Source: an uncultured virus (IMG/VR IMGVR_UViG_3300029705_002947)
Lineage: Duplodnaviria; Heunggongvirae; Uroviricota; Caudoviricetes
DNA: 20,000 nucleotides
Virus record (IMG/VR): IMGVR_UViG_3300029705_002947
Reading direction: 5' to 3' (one strand)
The notes below the pieces were generated by a model that did no database searches, was not told the DNA's origin, and saw only the letters and a list, made by a program, of their open reading frames with translations. The translations under genes and the position numbers were made by a program. Positions within the stretch are counted from its first letter, which is position 1; each line of letters starts with the position of its first letter. Below, one piece after another: positions 1-16,284 of this stretch.

Positions 1-2739
1 TAAAACGTTTTCACTACTAGCTTCACCTTCATTATAATAAACTATACAAGGGAAACCATCTATAGCATCATGATACCCGTCTTTTTTAGCTGGAGACATA
101 CCACCTAATTCGTCTATAACTTGATTATAGAATCTTGCAGTAGGTGTATTATTTTTATGTGATTGCTCCATATAGTCACATTTCAATGTATAGCAGCTAT
201 CTTCTACCCAATCAGGTGCGTTAGGAGGAGCAAATTTAAATTTAGATGTTTTTTCTTGATCTACCCATGTTTTTATTTTATAGTTTTTAACAGGATATTG
301 TAGTGAAGATGTACCTTGTAAATATACGTCAACATTATCAAAAACTATAATATTACCTTCACCATCATCATATTCCATTACACAGTCAACAAATGTCTTT
401 TTAGATTCTTTTTTATCTTTAATTGAGTGTAATGTAGCAAATTTAGCGTTTCCTTTAAATTCTTCTCCACCTTTTCTTTTAAATACTATTGTAGGTAAAG
501 ATGCAATTTCTAAGTTATTTTTATCATTTTTTTTCTGTTGTTCTTCACTATCATATATATGAGATATGTAGTTTTGTAATACTTCAGAAGATTTTAAGAA
601 ACTATTATAAATACGTATGAATTTTATTTCACATTCCCCAAAGTTCTCAAATGATATTTCGCCAGCAGCATTAATCATTCTACAAGCATTAAGAATCAAT
701 GGATAAGCTTGTTTTGAACCATCTAAGAATTCATCTTTTTCCGATAATGTAGTACAAGAACAAAGAACACCGTTTATATATACACGAAGTGTTTTTGTAG
801 GGTTAGCATCTTCTATCATGGCTTGCCCGACATGATCGAATGTTCTGACATTATTATCTACTACTAATGTTATATGAACCCATTCATCTTCCACGAATTG
901 TAATTTGTTTACTTGTAAGTTAGATCCTATAGCCATAGTATCATATGATATAGCAACACCTGGGTCGCCTATAGAGTCTGCTTTCATACATGTCATGACT
1001 CTAGCATTTAATTCCCCTATATTTCTAGTACGTATAGCTGTTTCAAGTGTAAATCCTTGTTGACCACCCATACTAAATATTGAGAATGGACTATAAGGAC
1101 GTGGTTCCCCATTTACCATTTGAACCAGTTCCCCATATGACTCACCTGTAAATTTAAGCATCATTTCTCCGTCATCTTCATCAGTTAATGTTTCATCAAT
1201 ATGTTTCCATCCATTAGATGAATAGTTTAATCCATGAAGTAATATTCTATATTTATCCCCTGTATGTCTAGAAGAGTTTTGCCATACATCTGGAGAACCG
1301 TCATTATTTCTTTTTGCATTAGCATCGAAATATGCGATTAAGTTAGGGTTATCTATATAAGGAACTTTTTGATATGTTGATGTAACTACTGTCATAACTT
1401 TTATAGCTGGTTCTTTTGTTTCAACAAGTCTATCGACAGTATATGCTTTTAAAATATATCTATAAGTACCTTCTTCTAATTTACCTACTGACCAATAGTT
1501 AGTTATATTAACCCTAGAAGAAATTCCTGCATCGGCAGTTTTAGCAACTAATTCCCATGATCCTAAGTTATCTTTATAAAGTTCACCTGTCATTACAAAG
1601 TAATCTGCTATTTTAGATATAACCCTAAAAGGAATAGAGAAATACATATTAGTATCAACTTGTTGGTCTTTAGCTTCATCTATGATAGCTATTTCATTTT
1701 CTTCAAGAACTCTAAATACATATTCTAGTTTATTAGATGTAAACACACCTTCAGTAGTATCATTTACACTTTCACCTGTATATGCTTGAGCATGTAATCT
1801 ATATAATCCACGTTTAGGTATTCCAGTTGAAGTCCATACAGATTCCATATATGTTCCTTCTAACACTTCTGTAGTTTCTGCTACAGTTTCACCAGTTTCA
1901 ACATTTACGATTCCTATGTTTAATTTCATATTAGCACTAGCATCTGCTAATGAAGCTATATATGGGAATTCTACAGAATCACCTTCTTCATAAATAGCAG
2001 TTAATAAGGTTTCTTCAAATGTACTTGTTAATTTTAATCCTCCGACTATAACTTTAAATGTTAATGTTTCTGGAGCAGGTATAGTTAAATAATCAGTAGC
2101 AGTTACTGTTATAGTATATGAACCATCAGTAGTTATTCTACCTAAGTTAGCTATAACAGAACCTTTAGCTCCATTCCATGCTTTTACTAAAGAACCATCT
2201 CTATACACACGATACTTACCATCACCATATGTATTACTCATAAAGTTAAATTTTATAATTAATTCTTCATCGTCTTTTAAATATATTTTAGTACCCTCTG
2301 GCATACTAGCATCATATGATAAAGTTGGTATTGATGATTCTTTTTTATTTATTTTATCCCAAGTTGCTGGTACTTTTTTACCATTTTCATCTTCTTTAAC
2401 AGAAGTTACTATATAAAATCCTGGATTGTCGTCATCAGACTCATCTGAAATTATATAAAATATAGATCCAACATTAGCTTTACTTTTAAGCATATCTCTA
2501 TAATTTGGAACTATAGTTGTACTTGTACTACTTACTGAACTCCATACACCTGGTGTACCACCTTCATTACAAATCCATATAGGTTCATCTACAGAAGTAG
2601 CACTGTCATTAATAATCATATCCCCAGTTAAATAAGTACCTTCAGTTGGAATAGAACTACCTCTCATTATTCTATTCTCTGTAAAATAGGTATTATTTTT
2701 ATCAGAGATTAATTTATTCTTTTTATTATTCTCAGACAT
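1..2739 (-). CDS. Large probable virion (tail/baseplate-associated) protein with LamG-like and CotH-kinase-like domains; 3' part runs off the window start
   Basis: Not in the ORF track because it is truncated by the edge. ATG at 2739, GGAG RBS at 2751-2754, late-type promoter at 2782-2793. Manually translated segments: N-terminal IPTEGTYLTGDMIIND..PIWICNEGGTPGVW (tail-fibre/spike-like motif); EWVHITLVVD..LRVYING..IKFIRIYN (LamG-like); LQGTSSLQYPVKNYKIK..YTLKCDYMEQSH..DAIDGFPC (CotH-like N-lobe). Start and window-edge segments are in the same frame; the middle was spot-checked only. Confidence 0.85.
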   Translation of the reverse strand, partial: MSENNKKNKLISDKNNTYFTENRIMRGSSIPTEGTYLTGDMIINDSATSVDEPIWICNEGGTPGVWSSVSSTSTTIVPNYRDMLKSKANVGSIFYIISDESDDDNPGFYIVTSVKEDENGKKVPATWDKINKKESSIPTLSYDASMPEGTKIYLKDDEELIIKFNFMSNTYGDGKYRVYRDGSLVKAWNGAKGSVIANLGRITTDGSYTITVTATDYLTIPAPETLTFKVIVGGLKLTSTFEETLLTAIYEEGDSVEFPYIASLADASANMKLNIGIVNVETGETVAETTEVLEGTYMESVWTSTGIPKRGLYRLHAQAYTGESVNDTTEGVFTSNKLEYVFRVLEENEIAIIDEAKDQQVDTNMYFSIPFRVISKIADYFVMTGELYKDNLGSWELVAKTADAGISSRVNITNYWSVGKLEEGTYRYILKAYTVDRLVETKEPAIKVMTVVTSTYQKVPYIDNPNLIAYFDANAKRNNDGSPDVWQNSSRHTGDKYRILLHGLNYSSNGWKHIDETLTDEDDGEMMLKFTGESYGELVQMVNGEPRPYSPFSIFSMGGQQGFTLETAIRTRNIGELNARVMTCMKADSIGDPGVAISYDTMAIGSNLQVNKLQFVEDEWVHITLVVDNNVRTFDHVGQAMIEDANPTKTLRVYINGVLCSCTTLSEKDEFLDGSKQAYPLILNACRMINAAGEISFENFGECEIKFIRIYNSFLKSSEVLQNYISHIYDSEEQQKKNDKNNLEIASLPTIVFKRKGGEEFKGNAKFATLHSIKDKKESKKTFVDCVMEYDDGEGNIIVFDNVDVYLQGTSSLQYPVKNYKIKTWVDQEKTSKFKFAPPNAPDWVEDSCYTLKCDYMEQSHKNNTPTARFYNQVIDELGGMSPAKKDGYHDAIDGFPCIVYYNEGEASSENVL

Positions 2740-2781
2740 TTATTTTTCAACTCCTTTTAAAAATAAATTATATTTATTCAT

Positions 2782-2793
2782 TACAAAATTGTT
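2782..2793 (-). promoter_or_regulatory. Late-type phage promoter AACA-N6-TA
   Basis: Minus strand AACA-ATTTTG-TA about 45 nt upstream of ATG 2739; context almost identical to the motif at 12093. Confidence 0.7.
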
Positions 2794-2809
2794 TCTGTGA
2801 TGAAAACAA

Positions 2810-2840
2810 GTATTAGATAAGCCAATGGCTTATCTAATAC
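2810..2840 (-). terminator. Intrinsic terminator after the 96-aa coiled-coil gene
   Basis: 14-bp perfect stem GTATTAGATAAGCC/GGCTTATCTAATAC directly after the stop at 2843, followed by TTGTTTTC on the minus strand. Confidence 0.8.
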
Positions 2841-2842
2841 AA

Positions 2843-3133
2843 TTATTTTTTATCTATTAATTTATCTATTTCTCCTAATAATTCTTCTAATTGTGCAACT
2901 CTGTTTTGTAATTGCACAATCTCTTTGTCTTTATTATCTTTAGCTACTCTTTCTTGTTCTAAAGCTTTTTCTAATTCTGCTATTTTTTCATCTCTTGCTT
3001 CTACATCATCTTTAACTGCTAAAAATTGTTCTTTAAGCATATCAATATTAGCAAATAATTCTTCCACCGATAAAATTTTCATTGGTTCTAATTCAGGTTC
3101 TACTTCTTTTTTCTTTTTAAAAAATAATCCCAT
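2843..3133 (-). CDS. Small coiled-coil protein (96 aa, MGLFFKKKKE...), paralog of 4158..4631
   Basis: GGAGGT RBS at 3141-3146 and promoter at 3170-3181 indicate the start is ATG 3133, not the track's 3250; E/K-rich heptad sequence. Confidence 0.8.
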   Translation of the reverse strand: MGLFFKKKKEVEPELEPMKILSVEELFANIDMLKEQFLAVKDDVEARDEKIAELEKALEQERVAKDNKDKEIVQLQNRVAQLEELLGEIDKLIDKK

Positions 3134-3169
3134 ATATAAAACCTCCAATTTTTTATTATTGATATTCAT

Positions 3170-3181
3170 TATAAGATTGTT
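3170..3181 (-). promoter_or_regulatory. Late-type phage promoter AACA-N6-TA
   Basis: Minus strand AACA-ATCTTA-TA followed by ATGAAT, as at 2782. Confidence 0.7.
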
Positions 3182-3190
3182 TCTAATGAT

Positions 3191-3318
3191 AAATATAAAG
3201 ATTGGAGTATACCCCGTACTTAAACGAAGTATACTACAATCATCAACCATGGTTATAAATTTCTATCTTCGTCAACTCGAGGACAGATCTCTGTGGCATA
3301 GACTTGTATGCCTAACTT
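3191..3318 (-). ncRNA. Candidate structured small RNA (~128 nt)
   Basis: Own AACA-N6-TA promoter (3318-3329), three hairpins whose G-U pairs favour the minus strand, terminal stem followed by UUUAUAUUU, no RBS-supported ORF. Confidence 0.55.
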
Positions 3319-3329
3319 ACTATATTGTT
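3318..3329 (-). promoter_or_regulatory. Late-type phage promoter AACA-N6-TA
   Basis: Minus strand AACA-ATATAG-TA just downstream of the hydrolase stop codon. Confidence 0.6.
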
Positions 3330-3333
3330 AGTA

Positions 3334-4158
3334 TTAATATAATTTTATATAATCACCACAAATAAATGCTTGTTTTCCTTTATATATAACACCAAACCAA
3401 TTGTTAAGACAATATTTAACTGTAACAACTTCTCCTTTTTTATATTGACCAAGGATTTTTTTATATTCTGCAGTTCCAGGTCTTCCTGCTCTAACATTTA
3501 ATGCTGATGCAGTTATAACTGCTTTTTTATTATAAGTTCCATTTTTAAACTTACCATCGGCATTTTTATGTGGATCTACAGGTTCTTTCGGTTTAGTTAC
3601 TTCAACAACTGGTGCTGGAGTTGCTTCTATTTTAGCAATTATAGATTTTAAAGTTACTGCATATTTTTTATCCGTAGCCCATGTTCCAGATAAGCCTTCT
3701 ACTGTAGGACACTTACCATATAAATAGGTAAAATGTCTTGGATCTAATGTTGTACCATTGGCTTTGTATTTATCATTTGGATAATTTTTAGTTTCAGGTG
3801 AATACTTAGGACAATTCTTAGCTCCTGCATATAATCCAAGATGATCAGCATGGGCTTGAATTCCATCAGCCCATGATTTAAATCTCATATGTGCGTTAGC
3901 TTCATAATCTCCTCCACCTTTTGTAGTTTTTAATCCACACGTGTTATGGAATGAAGCATTTAATACTCCACCAAAATTAAAATATCCTGTCTCACAACAA
4001 ACTTGTGCTAACATAACAACAGGATTTATTCCATTACCTTCTGCAGCTTTCCATATTATTGGTAAGTTTTGTAATAATAATTTATTTGCTGTTTTTATTG
4101 ATTTAACCCATGCTTCTGCTTGTGCATATGTTGCTGTTGCTTTTCCTAATATATTCAT
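3334..4158 (-). CDS. Peptidoglycan hydrolase/endolysin: GH73 glucosaminidase-type domain + C-terminal SH3b domain
   Basis: AQVCCETG (catalytic Glu), HNTCGLK, FKSWADGIQAH and WATDKKY motifs; Pro-rich linker; ITASALNVRAG..W..GDYI SH3b signature; TAATG overlap with the upstream gene. Confidence 0.85.
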   Translation of the reverse strand: MNILGKATATYAQAEAWVKSIKTANKLLLQNLPIIWKAAEGNGINPVVMLAQVCCETGYFNFGGVLNASFHNTCGLKTTKGGGDYEANAHMRFKSWADGIQAHADHLGLYAGAKNCPKYSPETKNYPNDKYKANGTTLDPRHFTYLYGKCPTVEGLSGTWATDKKYAVTLKSIIAKIEATPAPVVEVTKPKEPVDPHKNADGKFKNGTYNKKAVITASALNVRAGRPGTAEYKKILGQYKKGEVVTVKYCLNNWFGVIYKGKQAFICGDYIKLY

Positions 4159-4631
4159 TATTCATCATCTCCATCTTCTCTTATTATACCACATATACTA
4201 TTTATTTTTCTTAATAAATCATTCTTCTCATTTACTACATCAATAAGTTTATCTTTCAATTTACAATTATCTTCATATCTTTCTTGTGCTTCAGATTCCA
4301 ATCTTTTTATTTTATTATCTCTTTCTTCTATTCTATTTTGTTGTTCTTTTATAACATTATTCAACTCATTTATATTTTCTTCTTTCACAGCAAGCTCATT
4401 AATATAACCTTGCATATCTTCTGTAAGTTTTGCTATTATATCATTTAAAGCTAGTTTATCATTCTCAAGTTCTATAACTAAGTTGTCTCTTTTTTTAACT
4501 TCTTCTAATATTAAGTTTAACTGTTCAGACATAACATCTACACCAGCTATTAGTTCTTTTACTGTTAAGTTATTAATTTTGTCATCATCTTTTTTACTTT
4601 TTGTGTTTGTTATTTCCAATCTATAACCCAT
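4158..4631 (-). CDS. Coiled-coil protein (157 aa, MGYRLE...), paralog of 2843..3133
   Basis: AAGGAG RBS just after the rnr stop supports ATG 4631 over the track's 4688; long heptad pattern. Confidence 0.8.
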   Translation of the reverse strand: MGYRLEITNTKSKKDDDKINNLTVKELIAGVDVMSEQLNLILEEVKKRDNLVIELENDKLALNDIIAKLTEDMQGYINELAVKEENINELNNVIKEQQNRIEERDNKIKRLESEAQERYEDNCKLKDKLIDVVNEKNDLLRKINSICGIIREDGDDE

Positions 4632-4647
4632 TATTACCAACTCCTTT

Positions 4648-6771
4648 TTATAATTCGAATGTAATTTCTCTTGCTTCAACATTAACATTTGTTAGTTTAA
4701 CTGTTACCTCATCCCCAACTCTGAACGCTATTATGTGCATTTCATCACTATGTCCTTGACCTATTAATTCATGTGTATTTTCATTATATTCATAATAGTC
4801 ATCTTTTAATGTTTCTATAGGAACTAATCCTTCTACTGTATCTGGAAGTTCTACATAAAATCCGTAATGTGTTACACTTGAGATAAATCCTTTAAATTCT
4901 TGACCAATTTTATTTTCCATATATAAACATTTGTAATATTTATCAATATCTCTTTCAGCGACTTCTGCTTTTCTTTCCATCTCAGAAGATTGTTCTGAAG
5001 CTTTTAAAACTATAGCATCTAATTTATTTTGTCTTCCTTTACTTATACCACCATTAATAAATTCTTTTATTATTCTATGGATTTGTAAATCTGGATATCT
5101 TCTTATAGGTGATGTAAAATGACAATAAAACTTAGCAGCTAATCCAAAATGACCACTACAATCAGGAGAATATTTAGCTTGTTTTAAAGATCTTAATACT
5201 AAAGAACTTATAGCCCTTTCTTCTTTCTTCCCTTCTATAGATTTTAATATTTTTTGGATTGCTTTTGGATGAACTTCTTCCGTATCACCTTTTATCAATA
5301 AATTATAGTTGTGTATAAATTTATTTAAAGCTTCAACTTTACTTGAACTAGGTGTTTCATGTATTCTATAAACAAAAGGCATGCCTAACCAATAAAAATA
5401 TTCAGCAACTGTTTCGTTAGTTACAAGCATGAACTCTTCTATTATTTTATTAGCAATTCTTCTTTCATAAGGTTCTATATCATAAGGTATCCCATTTTCA
5501 TCTAAATGTATATAAGGTTCTGGGAAGTTAAAATCCAGAGCACCTCTCTTCTCTCTTTTCTTCATAAGAATTCTAGCAAGTTTTTCTGCTAATCTAAAAT
5601 CATCTACTAAATCAGCATATTTAATCTTTAATTCTCTATCGTTATTTTCTAATATATCTGAAACGTCTGTATAAACCATTCTAGCTTTAGATTTGATTAC
5701 AGTTTCTTCTATACTAGAATTAACAACTTCTCCTTTCCCAGTTATTTCCATAAATACAGATAAAGTTAATTTATCCTCATCAGGATTTAAACTACAAACA
5801 CCATTTGATAATTGTTTAGGTAACATAGGGATTACTTTATCTACAAGATAAACAGATGTTGCTCTTTTTAAAGCCTCTTTATCTAAGTTAGACTTTTCTT
5901 TAACATAATGTGTAACATCTGCTATATGAACTCCTAATAAATAGTTACCGTTATCTAACATTTCTACTTGTATAGCATCGTCTAAATCTTTTGCGTCAGC
6001 TCCATCCATTGTAAATATATGTTTATCTCTTAAATCTCTTCTTCTTTCATATTCTTCTTCAGGTATAGGAACTGCTACATGATTTGCATTATCTAATACT
6101 TTTTGTTCAAACTCTAAAGGTAATCCATGTTCTCTTATAATAGATTCTATTTCAATTCCTCTATTGTTTTTATTTCCTAATACTTCTATTATTTTACCTT
6201 CAGGTTTTTTGTTATCAACTTCCCATTTAGTTATTTCTACTAATACCATATCGTCTTCTTCGGCACCATTAAAATATTTCTCTTGTATATAAATATCTGA
6301 TTTAAATTCAGTTCTTTTAGGAACTACGAAAGCGAAATGTTCATGAGGTTTAAATACCCCAACTATTTGTGTAACATTTCTTTTTATTATCTGAACAACT
6401 TTACCTTCTGCTCTTTTATACCCTGAAGCTTCTTTAGTTATTTCTGCAACTACTCTATCGCCATGAACTGCTCCATTAACATCTTTAGATTGTATATATA
6501 AATCACGCTCATTTTCATTATCAGATTCTATAAAACCAAATCCCTTTCTATGAGATATAAACTTACCTACAAAAAGACCAACTTGAGATGGAGGGATTAT
6601 TCTCCCTTTTTTAGTTTCTATAAAATACATGTCTTTTTCAAGTTCATCTAACATTTTATAAAACTCTTCAACATTTTCAATCTTTAATTGAGCTACAAAT
6701 TCTTTTCGTGTTAAAGGTTTATATAAAAAACTATTAATTATGCTAATAAATGATTTCTTAGCTTCTTCCAT
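4648..6771 (-). CDS. rnr: Ribonuclease R (RNB-family 3'-5' exoribonuclease)
   Basis: Cold-shock domains (HRKGFGFI, GAVHGDRV), catalytic TMDGADAKDLDDA, IEEFML, YRIHE, HFGLA..YCHFTSPIRRYPDL, C-terminal S1 domain; AGGAGG RBS. Confidence 0.96.
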   Translation of the reverse strand: MEEAKKSFISIINSFLYKPLTRKEFVAQLKIENVEEFYKMLDELEKDMYFIETKKGRIIPPSQVGLFVGKFISHRKGFGFIESDNENERDLYIQSKDVNGAVHGDRVVAEITKEASGYKRAEGKVVQIIKRNVTQIVGVFKPHEHFAFVVPKRTEFKSDIYIQEKYFNGAEEDDMVLVEITKWEVDNKKPEGKIIEVLGNKNNRGIEIESIIREHGLPLEFEQKVLDNANHVAVPIPEEEYERRRDLRDKHIFTMDGADAKDLDDAIQVEMLDNGNYLLGVHIADVTHYVKEKSNLDKEALKRATSVYLVDKVIPMLPKQLSNGVCSLNPDEDKLTLSVFMEITGKGEVVNSSIEETVIKSKARMVYTDVSDILENNDRELKIKYADLVDDFRLAEKLARILMKKREKRGALDFNFPEPYIHLDENGIPYDIEPYERRIANKIIEEFMLVTNETVAEYFYWLGMPFVYRIHETPSSSKVEALNKFIHNYNLLIKGDTEEVHPKAIQKILKSIEGKKEERAISSLVLRSLKQAKYSPDCSGHFGLAAKFYCHFTSPIRRYPDLQIHRIIKEFINGGISKGRQNKLDAIVLKASEQSSEMERKAEVAERDIDKYYKCLYMENKIGQEFKGFISSVTHYGFYVELPDTVEGLVPIETLKDDYYEYNENTHELIGQGHSDEMHIIAFRVGDEVTVKLTNVNVEAREITFEL

Positions 6772-9607: not shown

Positions 9608-11662
9608 CTATTCTACATCAGCTAGAGATTTCATAAACATTAAATCTAATGGTGAATGTTTATGCTTCTTAAATGTTGTATGTGTATATAGTTGAGATTT
9701 TAGATAATCGTATGCTAAACTATTTGTTATAGATGGATTATCTGCTAATGATGCGTGCATACCTAATACAACATAATCTACAAATAATTTATTGAAATTA
9801 GGTCTTTCTAAATAATTATTAGCATCTCTAACAAATGATCTTAATATTGTTGCTGCATGTATTGATAATACACTGATTTTAGATTCTATTAATAATTCTA
9901 TAAATCTTTGTTCCATCATATCTAATGTTGGATTCATTCCTTTGAAATAAGATCCACTTAGAAGTTTATCCATTTCTTTTAATGGTTTAGTTAATTCGTT
10001 GTTCTCTATGTTTATTGTGAATAATGTTTCTTCAGATAATCTGCTAAACGGTATTAATATAACTCCATCTTCATCAGATTCTGTTTTCTTAATTATAGCA
10101 TCTAAATCTGGATGTATAAATAATTCTTTTCCATCGTTTTCAACTATCTCATAATATTCATCATGATTCTTAATGTTTCTCACTTTAACAAATTGTACAA
10201 ATTTATTAAAATCTGCATTGTCTAATAATTCATCAATTTGTATTATATTATCAAATACCATTTCATATTGACTTAAATCAACATCAGTTTCATTATCACT
10301 TAACATTTTAACTTGGTTTGCTTCAAGTTTAAATGATTTATCAAATGCATCATTAAACTCTATAAGACAACTATTAGTTGTGTTAAGATGTTTTGTTGAT
10401 AATATATTTTGTGATAATGGTCTTGATATAATCGTTGCTGCAAATATACCAACATCCATTCCTTTATTAACTTTAGATAAAGCTCCATAACATGTTTTAC
10501 ATACTCCATCTTTACATCCACATTTACCTGGGTCTCTAACTAATATAGTTCTTCCTATTAAATGTGTATCAGATTTCTTTAATAATTTAAACTCTCTCAT
10601 ACCTGGTAATCTATAATATCTTCCAACACACATTTCTAAGAATTTACTATCATTAATTGTTAATTTAACTGTATGTGGTGTATGACAATCTTCTGTTTCA
10701 CTGATATAAGTTCCAACACAAGATAATTTCATTAATAACGCCATATGTCCTGAACTACCCATTTTCTCTTTATTAGCTATTAATGATTTTCTTGAAGCTC
10801 CAGCATCTATAAAATAGTTTGTTATGTTACTAAAACCTCCAACTATTAAGTTACTATTGATAGGTATTGGAATTGTGTTACCTAATAGGTCTGATTTTAA
10901 TCCTCCGTTAATTGAGAACTCTCTAAGTTGTTCTTCTTTAATTGCTCCACCTGCTATTAACATTGGTTGGAAACAGTTTGGAGTTTCTTTTAATATCTCA
11001 ACTTCTTCTTTCATTAATTTATTAAGATGATTTTCTATATCTTTTGGTTGCATATCTTCTGGTATCTTAGTTCTTATTAATTCATTAAATCTTTTATTTT
11101 CTTTTGCAACTTTTATAAAACTATTCTCAAGATTTATTGTTATTCCCATAAGACTATTAAAATCTTTTGGTATCTTGTTTAATCTGTAGATTATATCATG
11201 TAATACTATATTCAATTCCATAAAACCTTCTTCAGTTTCTGTAAATTGATCTTTAAATGGAATTATTATTTTTTCATCTATATACTGTTTGATATACTTA
11301 TTAGAAATCTTTCTAGCATCAAATAAATATGTTATATCTAATTCTACTTCAACTTCTAATTCTACAAATGCTCTTAAGAATATCATATTTATTAATAAAT
11401 GTCTAATTTCCATTTCAACATAATGTTCATTGTTTTTATCAAATGTTACTTTTACTGGAAATTTTCTTATAGCTTCTATCTCAAATCCTTCTTCTAATAT
11501 ATAATATATATGTCCGTACATTGTTTTAAACTCATCATAATCGGATATGATTTTGTTTAAATCGAATATTTTATCTCCACCATAAATTTCTTCTACTTCA
11601 TTTAAAATTTGATTTTCAAATTCAATATATTTATTTAAATCAAAATTAAAATTATTATTCAT
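9608..11662 (-). CDS. rpoC: DNA-directed RNA polymerase beta-prime subunit, C-terminal half (split jumbo-phage RNAP; probably the non-virion enzyme, phiKZ gp74/AR9 gp154-like)
   Basis: Bridge-helix-like KEKMGSSGHMALLM, EDC, Zn-binding KCGC..VCKTCYG, trigger-loop-like VGIFAATIISRPLSQNILSTKH; no NADFDGD motif. GGAGG is 9 nt from ATG 11662 but only 3 nt from the track's 11668. Confidence 0.88.
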   Translation of the reverse strand: MNNNFNFDLNKYIEFENQILNEVEEIYGGDKIFDLNKIISDYDEFKTMYGHIYYILEEGFEIEAIRKFPVKVTFDKNNEHYVEMEIRHLLINMIFLRAFVELEVEVELDITYLFDARKISNKYIKQYIDEKIIIPFKDQFTETEEGFMELNIVLHDIIYRLNKIPKDFNSLMGITINLENSFIKVAKENKRFNELIRTKIPEDMQPKDIENHLNKLMKEEVEILKETPNCFQPMLIAGGAIKEEQLREFSINGGLKSDLLGNTIPIPINSNLIVGGFSNITNYFIDAGASRKSLIANKEKMGSSGHMALLMKLSCVGTYISETEDCHTPHTVKLTINDSKFLEMCVGRYYRLPGMREFKLLKKSDTHLIGRTILVRDPGKCGCKDGVCKTCYGALSKVNKGMDVGIFAATIISRPLSQNILSTKHLNTTNSCLIEFNDAFDKSFKLEANQVKMLSDNETDVDLSQYEMVFDNIIQIDELLDNADFNKFVQFVKVRNIKNHDEYYEIVENDGKELFIHPDLDAIIKKTESDEDGVILIPFSRLSEETLFTINIENNELTKPLKEMDKLLSGSYFKGMNPTLDMMEQRFIELLIESKISVLSIHAATILRSFVRDANNYLERPNFNKLFVDYVVLGMHASLADNPSITNSLAYDYLKSQLYTHTTFKKHKHSPLDLMFMKSLADVE

Positions 11663-11708
11663 AGACATTTACCTCCTATTAATATATATTTATTGTTATT
11701 GCTTAATT

Positions 11709-11746: not shown

Positions 11747-11785
11747 CACTTTTATAATATATAATTGAAATTTAACCTTTTTACA
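11744..11785 (-). promoter_or_regulatory. Early-type phage promoter, copy 1
   Basis: Minus strand TGTAAAAAGGTTAAATTTCAATTATATATTATAAAAGTGAAT; 36/42 identical without gaps to 18120-18161; contains TATATTAT. Confidence 0.75.
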
Positions 11786-11947
11786 CAGCAAAAATAAACG
11801 TAACTTCCCAACCATATTTTTATTTTAACAACTTCTTCACTCACCTCTTAAGGAGGTTCGTTTTATTCTTAATGCTGCTATCGCATTAAGAAGTTGTTGG
11901 TATGTTGATAAATTATAATAAGGTTTTTATAAAATTTAATTTAGTAT

Positions 11948-11959
11948 AACAAATTAGTA
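11948..11959 (+). promoter_or_regulatory. Late-type phage promoter AACA-N6-TA
   Basis: AACA-AATTAG-TA; followed by a structured non-coding unit and terminator. Confidence 0.6.
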
Positions 11960-12069
11960 AGTAAAATGATGGTATCGGAATCATCATATTACTTGAAACA
12001 TAAACATCTTACCTCTTATTGTTATTGTTTTGACATATACCCTATGCCTATGATTGGCATAGGGGTTTT
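11959..12069 (+). ncRNA. Candidate small RNA (~110 nt) with anti-Shine-Dalgarno loop
   Basis: Promoter, 5' hairpin, middle hairpin with loop UCUUACCUCUUAU, terminator CCCUAUGCC/GGCAUAGGG-GUUUU; no RBS-supported ORF on the plus strand. Confidence 0.6.
12040..12069 (+). terminator. Intrinsic terminator of the candidate sRNA
   Basis: 9-bp GC-rich stem CCCTATGCC/GGCATAGGG, 7-nt loop, GTTTT tail. Confidence 0.65.
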
Positions 12070-12092
12070 AACCGTCGATTTTTCAAGGCAAA

Positions 12093-12104
12093 AACAATTT
12101 TGTA
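12093..12104 (+). promoter_or_regulatory. Late-type phage promoter AACA-N6-TA for the beta gene
   Basis: AACA-ATTTTG-TA-AGTGAATAAA, near-identical to the 2782 promoter context. Confidence 0.7.
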
Positions 12105-12141: not shown

Positions 12142-15100
12142 ATGATTACTAGTAATAAATTACCATTATTAAAAAGAACTAGATTAAGACCTGTTATACA
12201 ATATGACCAAAAGAATAAAAGATATGGTTCATTAGTTATAATGAATACAATGGATACTAAAAACTTAAAACTTAAATTAGGTACTATTAATCTAGAATAT
12301 AATAACGTGGTTACTATGTGTTATGCTAAAAGATTAGAACAAATCAAGATAAGAAGTAAGTTAGTTAGAGAAAATAGATTACAAGGACGTCAAGCTTACT
12401 ATGATCAAATACGTGCAGAATTACCTTATTTAAATGGTATAAATGAAGGTAAACTTAATATGGGATTTAACGTATTCTTTGAACTTTCGTATGCAAATAC
12501 AGCATTTAGTACTAACTCATCTATGATAACAAGAATAGTTAAACCTAAAGAGTATTGGGAATTTATCATGCGATATATAGGTGAATTACCATTAGATAAA
12601 TATCCTATGAAATCAATGATAATGAACGTTGAAGAGTTTAGTAATGATTTAGTTAATGATTTAAACAATAGGGGAGAAGCTGTAAACCCTATGACTTATT
12701 TATATATCTTAATGAAAAGAGAACCCGAAGAATTTTTTAAATTAGGTGATATAGATTTTTTAATAACTTCTAAAACAGGTTGGACATTAAGAGTTAACCC
12801 TGCTGAGTGTAAGAGAACTATGAATACTGATGCAAATAAAGCTAATATTGCAGCATTATACAGAAAAGAATTATTTAAAATGCTGAATAGAGAAGATCCT
12901 GAAGAAGGAAGTGTATCTGCTGAAATAGATTCTATATTAGCACAAAATAAAGCTGATATAAGTAAATCCTTAATAGATAAATATGTTTTTGGTGCTACTG
13001 GTGATGCAGGTGTTCCTGAAGATGTTAAAAATAAAATAGAAGCTGAAGTTGAAAAAGTTTTAGATAAAAACCAAGAAATGGATGAAAATGATGTTAAGAA
13101 AGAAATAGAAAAAGACGAAAAACTTATGAAAGAAATAGTTATGGCTAATAATAAAAATATAGCTAAAACTGCTGCATCAAACAAACGTGATGAATTACTT
13201 AGAGAAAAACAGTTAGAAATCGCTGTAAGAGGAAAGACTCTTGAAGAAATATTAAATATGAAATCAGAAGAAGTAGAAGTTCCAGTTAATGATGTATCAA
13301 GTCACGTGGATACTATAAATAAAAATGTTACTGATATAAGATACCCAAATATAGATAAAGCATACGTTGAACAACTTATGGAAAAAGACATGGTTTCAAT
13401 GTTTACTGATATGAATAATAAATCTATAAAAGTATTTGTAAGAAATATATCTGTAGAAGATACTTCTGATATATCAAACTATAAAGAAACGTGGACTATT
13501 GAACTTGAAGACGAATTAAGGGTTAGACATAAAGTAGTATTTGACGTTCCTAAAATAATAGAAGGTAGATATCTATATTTAGGAGGTAATAGAAAATATA
13601 TAAATAATCAACAACTACTTTTACCGATAGTTAAAGTTGATCCTGATACAGTTCAATTAGTTAGTAATTATAACAAGATATTCATAAGACGTTACGGAGA
13701 AAAAGTTTCTCAAACTAATGAAAAACTTAAAAAAGCTTTATCAGAAGAAATAAAAGGTATTAGAGTTCAACGTGGTAAATTCGACTCTGAGAATGAAGGT
13801 TTTGTTACAACTATAGATTATGACGATTTATCTAAATTATTTAAAGAAGTTAATATAAACGGTACTAGAATAATATTCGACCAAAAGGAAATAAGACATA
13901 TATTATTAGATAGAAACATAAAAGGTTTAGAAGGAAGATTAGATGTTGAATTACTTCCTTTAGGAATTAAAGGTAATGAATATTATTGTATAGATTTAAA
14001 ATCTGACAATGTTGTTATTATAAACGCTCAAGGTAAAACTCAATCAACAGGAAAAACATTAGTTGAATTCATATTATCATTATCTCCAGCATTAAGTGCT
14101 AAAGTTGGAGAACAATCTGCTGGTAAAAAATATATGTACAGTAGAGCAACTATAATGAGTAAACAAGTACCAATAGTTTTATTATTATGTTACTTTGAAG
14201 GTATAGATGGATTCTTAAAAAGAGCGGACATAAAACACTATTTCTCAGATACTAGACCAAGATTAGCACCTGATGAAAACTGTATACAATTCCAAGATGG
14301 TTATTTAATATATACAAATAAACCTATAGCAACATCATTATTAATGAATGGGTTTATAGATATACCAACTAAAAATTATAATTACAGTGATTTAAATGAT
14401 AAGTTTGTTTATCAATCAATGTTTGAAACTATGTTTGGTAGAAGAAATATAGCAAATGCATTTGATAACTTCCAAGATAACTTTATAGATCCAATGACAT
14501 TGGATGTGTTAAAGAGATTAAATTTACCAACAGATTTAACTGGTATGGTATTATATGGAAATGAGTTATTAGCAGATAATCAATATACACATGAAATAAC
14601 TGTATCTAGAATAAGATGTGCTGAAGTTGTAAATGCTATAGTTTATAAAAACGTTGCAAGTGCTTATGAAAAATATAAAGAAACTGCAAACTTTAATAAC
14701 CCTACTAAGATAAGTATAGAACGTGGAGCTATAATCAAAGATATAATGAAACAACAAACAGTAGAAGATTATTCGGAACTTAATCCTATATATGAACAAC
14801 AAAACTTAAGAAAATGCTTAAGAAAAGGTCCTAGTGGATGTAACTTAGCACAAGCTTATACAGAAGAACAAAGATCTTACCATCCTGGTATGGCTGGTGT
14901 ATTCACATTATCTTCTTCTCCTGATGCTAACGTTGGTGTTAATAGATTCCTTACATTAGAACCACCTATAACAGATCCTCGTGGATTTATAGACAATAAA
15001 GCTTTACAAGGTAAAGTTACAGAATATAATGACGCAAACTTATTCGGTGTTGCTGAGCTATTAACTCCAGGTTGTGCATCTGGGGATGACAGTGTTAGAA

Positions 15101-16284
15101 CTACAATGTCATGTAGACAATCAACTCACTGTGTTGCTGTTGCTAAATCTTCTCCAGTTTTAGTATCAAATGGTGCAGAAAGAGTTATGCCTTATCATTG
15201 TACTAAAGACTGGGTATTTGTTGCTAAAGACAATGGTGAAGTAAAAGAATATGATGAAAAATTAGGTTTATTAATAGTTGAATATAAAAATGGGGAACAT
15301 GATGCTATAGATATAAACCGTATAGCTAAGAATGGTGCTGGTGGATTTAATATATCTAAACATATGGCTGTCAATGTTAAGAAAGGTGATAAATTTAAAA
15401 AGAATGATATATTAGCATATGAAGATAAATTCTTTAGTGAGAACTCAGCGTTTGGTAATAGATTTAATGTTGGTTCATTACAAAAAGTTGCATTATTATC
15501 TTCTTCATTAACTTATGAAGATAGTTCTTATATAAGTAAAAAACTTTCTAGAGAAATGGCTACTGAAGTAGTTATGCAAAAACAAGCGGTACTTGGACCT
15601 AACACAACTGTTGACTATATGGTTAAAATAGGTGATAAGGTTCAAAATGGAGACGAACTAATAAGATTTGAGAAGTCATTCAGTGAAGATGTAATCAACC
15701 AATTATTATTTAATGTTGGTGATGAATTCAAGGAAGAAATTATAATGAGTGGTAAAGAAAAAATAAAATCTAAATATTCAGGTGTTATAGAAGATATAAA
15801 AGTTTTCTGTACAGTTGAACTAGATGAACTTTCTCCGTCATTAAGACAAATAGTAAATCAATATTATAGTAAAATAAAGGCAAGAAAAAAATTATTAGAA
15901 AAATATGATGATAATGGTTCTGTAGTTAAATGTAATATGTTATTCAACGAACCAACAGGTAAAGTAGAAGCTAAAGATGGTAAATTTAGAGGTGCTATAG
16001 TTAACGAAGGTGTGTTAATAGAATTCTACATTAAAATACATGATGAAGTTGGTGTAGGAGATAAAATAGTTTTCTTTAGTGCATTAAAAAGTATCGTTGG
16101 TAGTATAATACCTGAAGGACAAGAAGCTTATACATTATTTAGACCAGATGAAGGAATAGATGCTGTTCTAAGTTGTAACTCATTAATAGCAAGGGGTGTT
16201 ACATCTGCTCCTAAAATGATAATGGCTAATAAATTATTAGTTGAGTTAAGTAGATCGTTGGAAGAAATTTATAAAAGAAAATAA
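12142..16284 (+). CDS. rpoB: DNA-directed RNA polymerase beta subunit (large fragment of a split jumbo-phage RNAP; probably the virion enzyme, phiKZ gp178-like)
   Basis: Diverged RpoB motifs: KGPSG, RSYHPGMAG, SSPDANVGVN, DDSVRTTMSCRQSTHCV, YEDSSYIS, VGDKIVFFSALKSIV, IDAVLSCNSLIAR. Long N-terminal extension; ends before the normal RpoB C-terminus. Confidence 0.92.
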   Translation: MITSNKLPLLKRTRLRPVIQYDQKNKRYGSLVIMNTMDTKNLKLKLGTINLEYNNVVTMCYAKRLEQIKIRSKLVRENRLQGRQAYYDQIRAELPYLNGINEGKLNMGFNVFFELSYANTAFSTNSSMITRIVKPKEYWEFIMRYIGELPLDKYPMKSMIMNVEEFSNDLVNDLNNRGEAVNPMTYLYILMKREPEEFFKLGDIDFLITSKTGWTLRVNPAECKRTMNTDANKANIAALYRKELFKMLNREDPEEGSVSAEIDSILAQNKADISKSLIDKYVFGATGDAGVPEDVKNKIEAEVEKVLDKNQEMDENDVKKEIEKDEKLMKEIVMANNKNIAKTAASNKRDELLREKQLEIAVRGKTLEEILNMKSEEVEVPVNDVSSHVDTINKNVTDIRYPNIDKAYVEQLMEKDMVSMFTDMNNKSIKVFVRNISVEDTSDISNYKETWTIELEDELRVRHKVVFDVPKIIEGRYLYLGGNRKYINNQQLLLPIVKVDPDTVQLVSNYNKIFIRRYGEKVSQTNEKLKKALSEEIKGIRVQRGKFDSENEGFVTTIDYDDLSKLFKEVNINGTRIIFDQKEIRHILLDRNIKGLEGRLDVELLPLGIKGNEYYCIDLKSDNVVIINAQGKTQSTGKTLVEFILSLSPALSAKVGEQSAGKKYMYSRATIMSKQVPIVLLLCYFEGIDGFLKRADIKHYFSDTRPRLAPDENCIQFQDGYLIYTNKPIATSLLMNGFIDIPTKNYNYSDLNDKFVYQSMFETMFGRRNIANAFDNFQDNFIDPMTLDVLKRLNLPTDLTGMVLYGNELLADNQYTHEITVSRIRCAEVVNAIVYKNVASAYEKYKETANFNNPTKISIERGAIIKDIMKQQTVEDYSELNPIYEQQNLRKCLRKGPSGCNLAQAYTEEQRSYHPGMAGVFTLSSSPDANVGVNRFLTLEPPITDPRGFIDNKALQGKVTEYNDANLFGVAELLTPGCASGDDSVRTTMSCRQSTHCVAVAKSSPVLVSNGAERVMPYHCTKDWVFVAKDNGEVKEYDEKLGLLIVEYKNGEHDAIDINRIAKNGAGGFNISKHMAVNVKKGDKFKKNDILAYEDKFFSENSAFGNRFNVGSLQKVALLSSSLTYEDSSYISKKLSREMATEVVMQKQAVLGPNTTVDYMVKIGDKVQNGDELIRFEKSFSEDVINQLLFNVGDEFKEEIIMSGKEKIKSKYSGVIEDIKVFCTVELDELSPSLRQIVNQYYSKIKARKKLLEKYDDNGSVVKCNMLFNEPTGKVEAKDGKFRGAIVNEGVLIEFYIKIHDEVGVGDKIVFFSALKSIVGSIIPEGQEAYTLFRPDEGIDAVLSCNSLIARGVTSAPKMIMANKLLVELSRSLEEIYKRK

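Follow-up and report, generated by a model that had tools for sequence, protein, structure and literature searches.

A candidate late non-coding unit downstream of the endolysin gene in an uncultivated relative of jumbo phage AR9

Background

Is the structured segment that follows an endolysin gene in an uncultivated phage genome a small RNA in its own right, or only the tail of the endolysin mRNA? The question was raised by an initial annotation of one stretch of DNA, hereafter the window, which is 20,000 nucleotides long and corresponds to the minus strand of positions 59803-79802 in a 202,636-bp IMG/VR virus record (IMGVR_UViG_3300029705_002947). Coordinates below are those of the window unless stated otherwise. 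The annotation proposed an independent structured RNA of about 128 nt, transcribed from its own late promoter and belonging to no recognised class.

The phage is present in faecal and bovine gut metagenomes from 16 studies. The window contains genes of two RNAP beta-like subunits (9608-11668 and 12142-16284). The nearest GenBank relatives of both proteins are found in the Bacillus phages PBS1 and vB_BsuM-Goe21 and in other jumbo phages of the AR9 group, with about 34% identity. By protein similarity, this uncultivated virus is a jumbo phage and a distant relative of AR9/PBS1, and it encodes its own multisubunit RNAP.

Results

Gene neighbourhood

All genes near the element are on the minus strand. 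One gene run consists of a full-length exoribonuclease of the RNase R / RNase II family (4648-6771; RNB 1.8e-115, cold-shock and S1 domains, PHROG 13933), a 176-aa gene (4158-4688), and an endolysin gene with glucosaminidase and SH3 domains (3334-4158; Pfam Glucosaminidase 5.1e-15, SH3_3 3.5e-05; PHROG endolysin 1.5e-48). The endolysin stop codon TAA (3336-3334) is followed by a gap of 200 nt (3333-3134), in which the element lies. Next comes a gene encoding a 96-aa coiled-coil protein (2843-3133, start codon ATG 3133 behind GGAGG), situated 3' of the element and outside the RNA; it is missing in the diverged relative L007 described below. A terminator scan places a hairpin terminator after this gene (2840-2810). 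Further downstream are a promoter motif (2796-2775) and a large gene with no assigned role (2739-1). The 96-aa gene has a candidate late promoter separate from that of the element, with the motif at 3184-3163 and the predicted start at A3170, in agreement with the initial annotation.

Candidate hairpins and terminator

Folding of the minus strand of region 3333-3185 by RNAfold yields exactly three hairpins. Hairpin 1 (GGCAUA/UAUGCC, 3295-3312) has six pairs and a 6-nt loop. Hairpin 2 (UCUGUC-C-UCG/CGA-A-GAUAGA, 3262-3287) has nine pairs, one C.A mismatch and the loop AGUUGA. The 42-nt terminal stem-loop (3200-3241) is formed by five pairs, a U.C mismatch and twelve further pairs (17 in all) and is closed by the loop UUAAGU. 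It is followed by the U-rich tail UUUAUAUUU (3191-3199), the predicted 3' end. Thus both hairpins, the long terminal stem and the tail listed by the annotation were recovered, on the same strand and at the same positions.

The energy of this fold is -41.3 kcal/mol (z = -3.73), with none of 200 shuffled sequences as stable, and every pair of the three helices has probability 0.88-1.0. The opposite strand gives -35.4 kcal/mol (z = -3.08), since two U-G pairs in the terminal stem and one G-U pair in hairpin 2 are lost there; the suggestion that wobble pairs favour the minus strand is thus borne out. The segment is also richer in G+C than its flanks, as had been noted (0.38 in 3200-3319 versus 0.20-0.26 in neighbouring non-coding DNA). 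One structural suggestion is weak: a helix GUUA/UAAC that would close hairpins 1 and 2 into a three-way junction is absent from the minimum-energy fold, has pair probability about 0.15, and, when forced, leads to -37.4 versus -38.3 kcal/mol. The same bases are not kept in L007, and the junction was rejected.

Region 3241-3191 has the features of an intrinsic terminator, that is, a stable G+C-containing stem-loop (17 pairs, one mismatch) and an immediate U-rich run. A simple terminator scan does not list 3241-3200, presumably because the U.C mismatch splits the stem. No terminator was found between the endolysin stop codon and 3241, so endolysin transcripts must run into the element, which is certain on sequence grounds. 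For this reason, the RNA cannot be fully independent: the last hairpin would double as the endolysin terminator, and the RNA would exist as a 3'UTR and, probably, as a free late RNA of about 125 nt. The length predicted from the positions of the motif and the hairpin is 124-128 nt in the window and 185 nt in L007.

Candidate late promoter

Late promoters of AR9, recognised by the non-virion RNAP, are described in the transcriptome paper on this phage as AACA-(6N)-TA/G, the last base being the TSS, and AR9 operons as ending at predicted terminators (PMC5312081). The sequence AACAAT-N4-TAAG at 3329-3316 (minus strand) begins 5 nt past the endolysin stop codon. Positions 3329-3318 fit the published consensus, with AACA at 3329-3326, a six-base spacer at 3325-3320, T3319, and the predicted start at A3318. 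The annotation had reported the same AACA-N6-TA string directly after the hydrolase, that is, endolysin, stop.

The strict form of this motif, AACAAT-N4-TAA[TG], occurs 21 times in the genome versus 7.3 +/- 2.5 in 100 dinucleotide shuffles. Of the 21, 20 are followed by an SD-like motif and a start codon, which begin 25-84 nt (in 19 cases 25-42 nt) from the first base of the motif. The remaining copy, the only one without a gene behind it, is 3329-3316. The relaxed consensus has 391 genome matches, 47 of which are located 20-49 nt upstream of sites with an RBS and a start codon; other 10-nt bins contain about 1-6 matches. At core scores of at least 10 bits, 59 matches fall in the 15.4 kb of non-coding DNA versus 18 in the coding 92%. 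By these counts, the AACA-type motif is a real and heavily used class of predicted promoters in this genome.

How good is the copy behind the endolysin gene? Scored by the core PWM (positions 0-13), it exceeds 85% of the 55 gene-proximal promoters, and 6 of 335 other matches equal it. Scored by the wide PWM (-4..+20), it is at the 15th percentile of the gene-proximal promoters, and 65 of 336 other matches equal it; at -2/-1 it has C,T in place of the A,A found in most promoters. From the match densities we estimate that about 1.5-3 chance matches of this strength are expected over all non-coding DNA, so a single orphan could be due to chance. Taken as the sole evidence for a promoter at 3318, the motif is good, but not decisive.

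These numbers bear on the simplest alternative, namely, that the element is a structured 3'UTR and terminator of the endolysin mRNA only, and that AACA-N6-TA is accidental or silent. It is favoured by the few chance matches expected, by the ordinary score of the motif under the wide PWM, and by the read-through into the element. The hairpins might then protect the mRNA tail against 3' exonucleases, e.g. the phage RNase R homologue two genes upstream, whose RNB-family gene is the one at 4648-6771. On the other hand, the other strict motifs always precede a gene (20 of 20), and the motif is depleted in coding DNA. The comparison with related loci, given below, adds to both sides.

Two further observations concern the promoter repertoire as such. 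The strict late-promoter word is enriched about threefold genome-wide (21 versus 7.3), yet has 0 copies inside true coding sequence, which suggests selection against stray promoters within genes. The promoter-like motif preceding the RNase R-endolysin run (about 6809, minus strand) starts with TACAAT instead of AACAAT, and the same promoter in a relative with 83% identity (L004, about 5960) starts with GACAAT. These may be variants of the late promoter or a different temporal class.

Related loci

A metagenome scan with the endolysin produced seven loci: two remote ones (26-27% identity), one ending inside the gene, and four with downstream sequence (L007, L008, L009, L011). In addition, there is a near-identical contig, L002, whose sequence over this region matches that of the window completely (100%). 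L007 is a diverged relative, the identity being 99% (amino acid) and 91% (nucleotide) for the endolysin, 81.5% (nucleotide) for RNase R, and 79% (nucleotide) for the large gene. The endolysins of L008, L009 and L011 are 73%, 69% and 64% identical to that of the window at the protein level.

Of the four diverged relatives that extend past the endolysin, only L007 has the element; the near-identical contig L002 has it as well. The L007 motif is located 4 nt past the stop codon, and its 14-mer and three further bases are identical to those of the window, whereas 6 of the 11 preceding bases differ. It is followed by an extra 5' hairpin, hairpin 1, hairpin 2 and the terminal stem, directly behind which lies the large gene's late promoter. 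Sixteen nucleotides that make up the tip of the terminal hairpin in the window, with the loop UUAAGU, are repeated exactly in the extra 5' hairpin of L007. Hence the tip, a stem CGU/ACG with the loop UURAGU, occurs once in the window and twice in L007. The RNA is 78-87% identical between the two, no higher than the neighbouring genes (79-91% at the nucleotide level).

In L008, L009 and L011 a simple terminator hairpin, unrelated to that of the window, is all that lies between the endolysin stop codon and a late promoter with the large gene behind it; these loci lack hairpins 1 and 2, and their stop codons have no promoter motif behind them. U/A tails like UUUAUAUUU stand behind the hairpins of L007 and of these three loci. 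As three relatives have a plain terminator only, the element is an accessory insertion. It lies between the endolysin stop codon and the terminator and is confined to one sub-lineage, and the terminal stem stands at the site of the ancestral endolysin terminator.

The same holds at the level of strains. DNA contigs from two metagenomes contain joints 3242/3243-3332, 2841-3333 and 2797-3332. From their positions, these are candidate strains in which the promoter and hairpins 1-2, or the whole module together with the 96-aa gene, are absent or replaced. Missing from three of four relatives and from some strains, the element has to be dispensable. The junction between the endolysin and the large gene (window 2798-3333, and L007-L011) is in itself a hot spot of gain and loss, with at least three different joints in metagenome strains. 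Within this set (the window and L007-L011), only the window carries the 96-aa gene, and the RNA module is confined to the window and L007.

Wider scans added little. When the endolysin, RNase R, the 176-aa protein and the product of the large gene were each searched for in viral contigs, only the near-identical contig and one contig ending inside RNase R came up, and a profile of the N-terminus of the large protein found no new homologue. DNA patterns matched only the near-identical contig among viral contigs; among genome contigs they matched nothing, or gave two chance matches in coding DNA of unrelated MAGs. The 18-nt promoter word had chance matches to three unrelated contigs of 45-47% GC.

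For the reading as a 3'UTR and nothing else, the related loci cut both ways. The terminal stem stands where the relatives have their endolysin terminator, and termination alone would explain it. However, not one base of the motif has changed in L007, where the flanks have diverged, and for the relatives about 5-30 nt of 3'UTR and a hairpin suffice. We regard this explanation as doubtful, although it deserves to be weighed seriously.

The layout of a promoter, a short structured RNA and a terminator directly upstream of a gene, as in phiKZ, brings up another explanation. The element may be a leader with a conditional terminator. Most transcripts, whether begun at the 3329-3316 promoter or in the endolysin operon, would stop at 3241-3191, and some would reach the downstream structural genes. 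The proportion would be controlled by a factor bound to the conserved tip of the hairpin, and the short RNA would be a by-product, as proposed for the 5'UTR-derived RNAs of phiKZ. The 16-nt tip repeated in L007 does suggest a recognised site, but no candidate binding protein was identified. Moreover, a separate late promoter serving the downstream gene stands 10-20 nt past the terminator in all five genomes (the window, L007, L008, L009 and L011), so this gene needs no read-through. This weakens the explanation, and we consider it unlikely.

Conservation of base pairing

The helices had been defined by the initial annotation from the window alone, which permits a test on L007. In the alignment of these two sequences, for which RNAalifold predicts the same helices, 34 pairs in three helices were counted. 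Twenty-six pairs are invariant, three have a one-sided change to a wobble pair, two are changed on both sides and still paired, two are mismatches in the window but paired in L007, and one is lost. Hairpin 1 is kept, with U-A changed to U-G. Hairpin 2 has a compensatory change from U-A to C-G, one wobble change, the C.A mismatch repaired to C-G, and the lost pair. In the terminal stem there are a compensatory change from C-G to U-A, one wobble change, and the U.C mismatch repaired to G-C. The loops AGUUGA of hairpin 2 and UURAGU of the terminal stem are kept.

Compensatory changes in a homologue, which the annotation had named as a test, were therefore observed, as two two-sided changes in an alignment of two sequences. 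A covariation shuffle control was not significant (131 of 500), a comparison that has no power with two rows. Because the helices were fixed beforehand, one can also ask how often random substitutions would spare the 32 canonical pairs. These contain nine substitutions, with one pair lost and two changed on both sides. When nine substitutions were placed at random, at most one broken pair was seen in 0.1-0.6% of 20,000 trials (transition share 0.5-0.67; the observed share is 14/25). For hairpins 1 and 2 alone, the same test gives P = 0.02-0.11 (transition shares 0.5-0.8).

The element might also be the decaying remnant of a moron-like cassette that once comprised a promoter, a small gene and a terminator; it would then be functionless today, and its hairpins incidental. 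In favour of this are the frequent gains and losses at the locus (the 96-aa gene only in the window, the extra hairpin only in L007), the lack of the whole module in L008, L009, L011 and some strains, and conservation no higher than in the neighbouring genes. Against it, the fold is more stable than shuffled sequences, the substitutions preserve pairing, both loops AGUUGA and UURAGU are kept, and there is no trace of a common reading frame. We consider this explanation highly improbable.

Coding potential and known families

The ORFs that cover the segment are spurious, as had been supposed. On the minus strand, ORF 2843-3250 extends the 96-aa gene in frame beyond its real start, ATG 3133; the other artefact, ORF 2925-3365, is on the plus strand. 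The sole internal ORF (18 aa) has no SD. Short ORFs of the window and L007 occupy different frames over the common segment and also have no SD. A peptide-coding function was rejected, as the frame is not conserved and SD is absent.

The RNA had been said to belong to no recognised class, and a covariance-model search of Rfam 15 found no family: there were 0 matches at the gathering score over the whole window, and the best weak matches in 3100-3400 had E = 4 and 9.6, far below gathering. ARAGORN identified 0 tRNA or tmRNA genes in the window. No DNA match of the intergenic region to GenBank phages was better than E = 0.2. The covariance model R1, constructed from the window and L007, finds one copy only in the phage genome, has no match in the 66-kb record of the 83% relative, and gives only weak terminator-like matches on all retrieved loci. 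With no Rfam match and no homologue beyond two close lineages, the putative RNA family is itself new.

Metatranscriptome contigs and possible targets

Metatranscriptome contigs from two runs of one study cover the endolysin ORF, one spanning 3332-4167 with 32 differences from the window and the other 3332-3894 with 11 differences. Both end about 9 nt past 3332, within AACAAT, and none lies on 2700-3303; the ends of RNAs cannot be read from assembled contigs. Since several DNA strains part from the window at this point, an assembly break is the simplest explanation of the stop. The gap over the element neither supports nor refutes transcription from 3318.

Possible targets were sought by computing duplex energies against 151 putative translation-initiation regions. 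The best value, -37.1 kcal/mol, is within the range of minima for 20 shuffled RNAs (-30 to -40 kcal/mol).

Discussion

A model of the unit

Our preferred interpretation, to which we assign a probability of about one half, is an accessory late non-coding unit embedded in the endolysin 3'UTR, its RNA existing both as a UTR and as a free species of about 125 nt. The originally proposed independent RNA of about 128 nt is retained here in part. The promoter class, the conservation of the motif and helices in L007, and the lack of a conserved ORF or a known family speak for it; less favourable are the terminator in common with the endolysin gene, by which the RNA is not fully independent, the weakness of the junction, and the three of four relatives without the element.

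In this model the phage non-virion RNAP would start at A3318 from the AR9-type late promoter 5 nt past the endolysin stop codon. Transcription would stop at the 3241-3200 stem-loop with its U tract, which would also form the end of the endolysin mRNA. This would yield a stable RNA, about 124-128 nt in length, with hairpins 1 and 2 in its interior. Late in infection it would be made in two forms, one as the tail of the mRNA for endolysin and one as a free small RNA, the latter probably being the more abundant. As a best guess, the RNA may act through the exposed conserved loops AGUUGA and UURAGU, binding a protein or RNA partner. Since the hairpin tip is duplicated in L007, a role in docking a protein or an RNA is the most concrete suggestion that can be made.

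A bolder version, which we regard as a long shot, sees the element as an RNA "moron" that varies between strains of AR9-like jumbo phages of the gut. Such an RNA would be a bulk late product of the phage polymerase, its hairpin tip would sequester an RNA-binding protein of the host or the phage, and it would be one of at least three units of this kind in the genome. Its role might be that of an RNA decoy against host defence, or of a lysis timer beside the endolysin gene.

Other candidate units in the genome

The layout of a late promoter, a structured RNA, a terminator and the next late promoter recurs at 11948-12075 of the window and at about 87152-87447 of the genome, which counts in favour of the model. 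The former, probably the first of the two candidates to which the initial annotation alludes, (plus strand) has AACA at 11949-11952, a hairpin-rich segment of about 110 nt, and a 9-bp G+C-rich hairpin with a U run. It is followed by a real late promoter (about 12093) of the RNAP beta gene (ATG 12142). The fold of 11955-12095 has an energy of -38.0 kcal/mol (z = -4.12). The latter (L021 1153-1448, plus strand) consists of a late-promoter motif and a very stable 285-nt RNA, richer in G+C, whose 3' end is a 20-bp terminator, and lies in an intergenic gap of about 450 nt. Its MFE is -98.9 kcal/mol (z = -8.05), and it has no Rfam or tRNA match.

Another repeated element, of about 150 nt, has three copies, at about 11780-11925 of the window (minus strand) and at about 22440-22600 (plus) and 173100-173310 (minus) of the genome. 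Each copy is 220-280 nt upstream of a gene start and contains an A/T-rich head, a long-range stem and an inner hairpin, whose arms differ between the copies while complementarity is kept. It could be a promoter class with a structured leader, or another family of non-coding RNAs.

Comparison with known systems

Short intergenic and 5'UTR-derived non-coding RNA candidates of phiKZ and other Pseudomonas phages have been described by ONT-cappable-seq (PMC10914365). According to that report, phiKZ has 17 promoter-to-terminator candidates, two of which were confirmed by northern blots, and in the phiKZ cases more than 90% of transcripts stop at the 5'UTR terminator. The candidates were defined there by less than 250 nt between the TSS and the terminator, no SD-led ORF of at least 10 aa, and conservation in related phages. 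The element described here has no SD-led ORF of at least 10 aa, and its length is 124-128 nt, both ends being predicted from the motif and the hairpin. Like the reported phiKZ RNAs, it would combine a phage promoter with a terminator within 250 nt and a short structured RNA without an SD-led ORF, and it adjoins a protein gene in a phage with its own multisubunit RNAP. The differences are that the RNAs of phiKZ were detected directly, by long reads and northern blots, whereas this element is predicted from sequence, and that the promoter is of the AR9 type, AACA-N6-TA, unlike the late motif reported for phiKZ. There is no sequence similarity between the element and the phiKZ RNAs. Also unlike phiKZ, the terminator here ends an upstream gene, that of the endolysin, and a second promoter lies behind it.

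The non-coding RNAs reported for PAK_P3 are likewise late small RNAs in 3'UTRs of phage genes; they are described as having no TSS of their own and being made by processing, whereas our element has a full promoter motif at its 5' edge (PMC10914365). With the AR9 late units, as published, the element has in common the promoter consensus, the TSS at the final A/G and the hairpin terminators, and the RNAP subunits are about 34% identical (PMC5312081). The same paper lists 124 late protein genes and one tRNA gene for AR9, and the terms "noncoding" and "small RNA" occur 0 times in its main text. A 2026 review, in the part available, states only that phiKZ expresses non-coding RNAs (PMC13282480), and a term search of a 2025 review of phage sRNAs yielded no passage on jumbo phages. 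Our literature searches found no report of such small RNAs in the AR9/PBS1 branch. AR9 infects Bacillus, whereas the phage considered here comes from animal gut metagenomes.

In bacteria, sRNAs of the DapZ/MicL type are embedded in 3'UTRs, being transcribed from an internal promoter and using the terminator of the mRNA. They act by Hfq-dependent base pairing through a defined seed. The element resembles them in having a candidate promoter near the stop codon, an intrinsic terminator in common with the mRNA, and predicted UTR and free forms. It differs in that no seed or target was found, and in that the polymerase would be a phage enzyme.

Significance

The cataloguing of small RNAs of virulent phages is just beginning. 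Should the element be nothing more than a 3'UTR, we are dealing with a terminator region of the ordinary kind. If our preferred reading, a late non-coding unit in the endolysin 3'UTR, is correct, the very short late promoter of the nvRNAP would let non-coding genes of uncultivated jumbo phages be predicted by sequence analysis alone. It would also mean that such RNAs are swapped between close strains like accessory genes, and it would provide a compact structured RNA with a repeated loop motif, well suited to a search for its partner.
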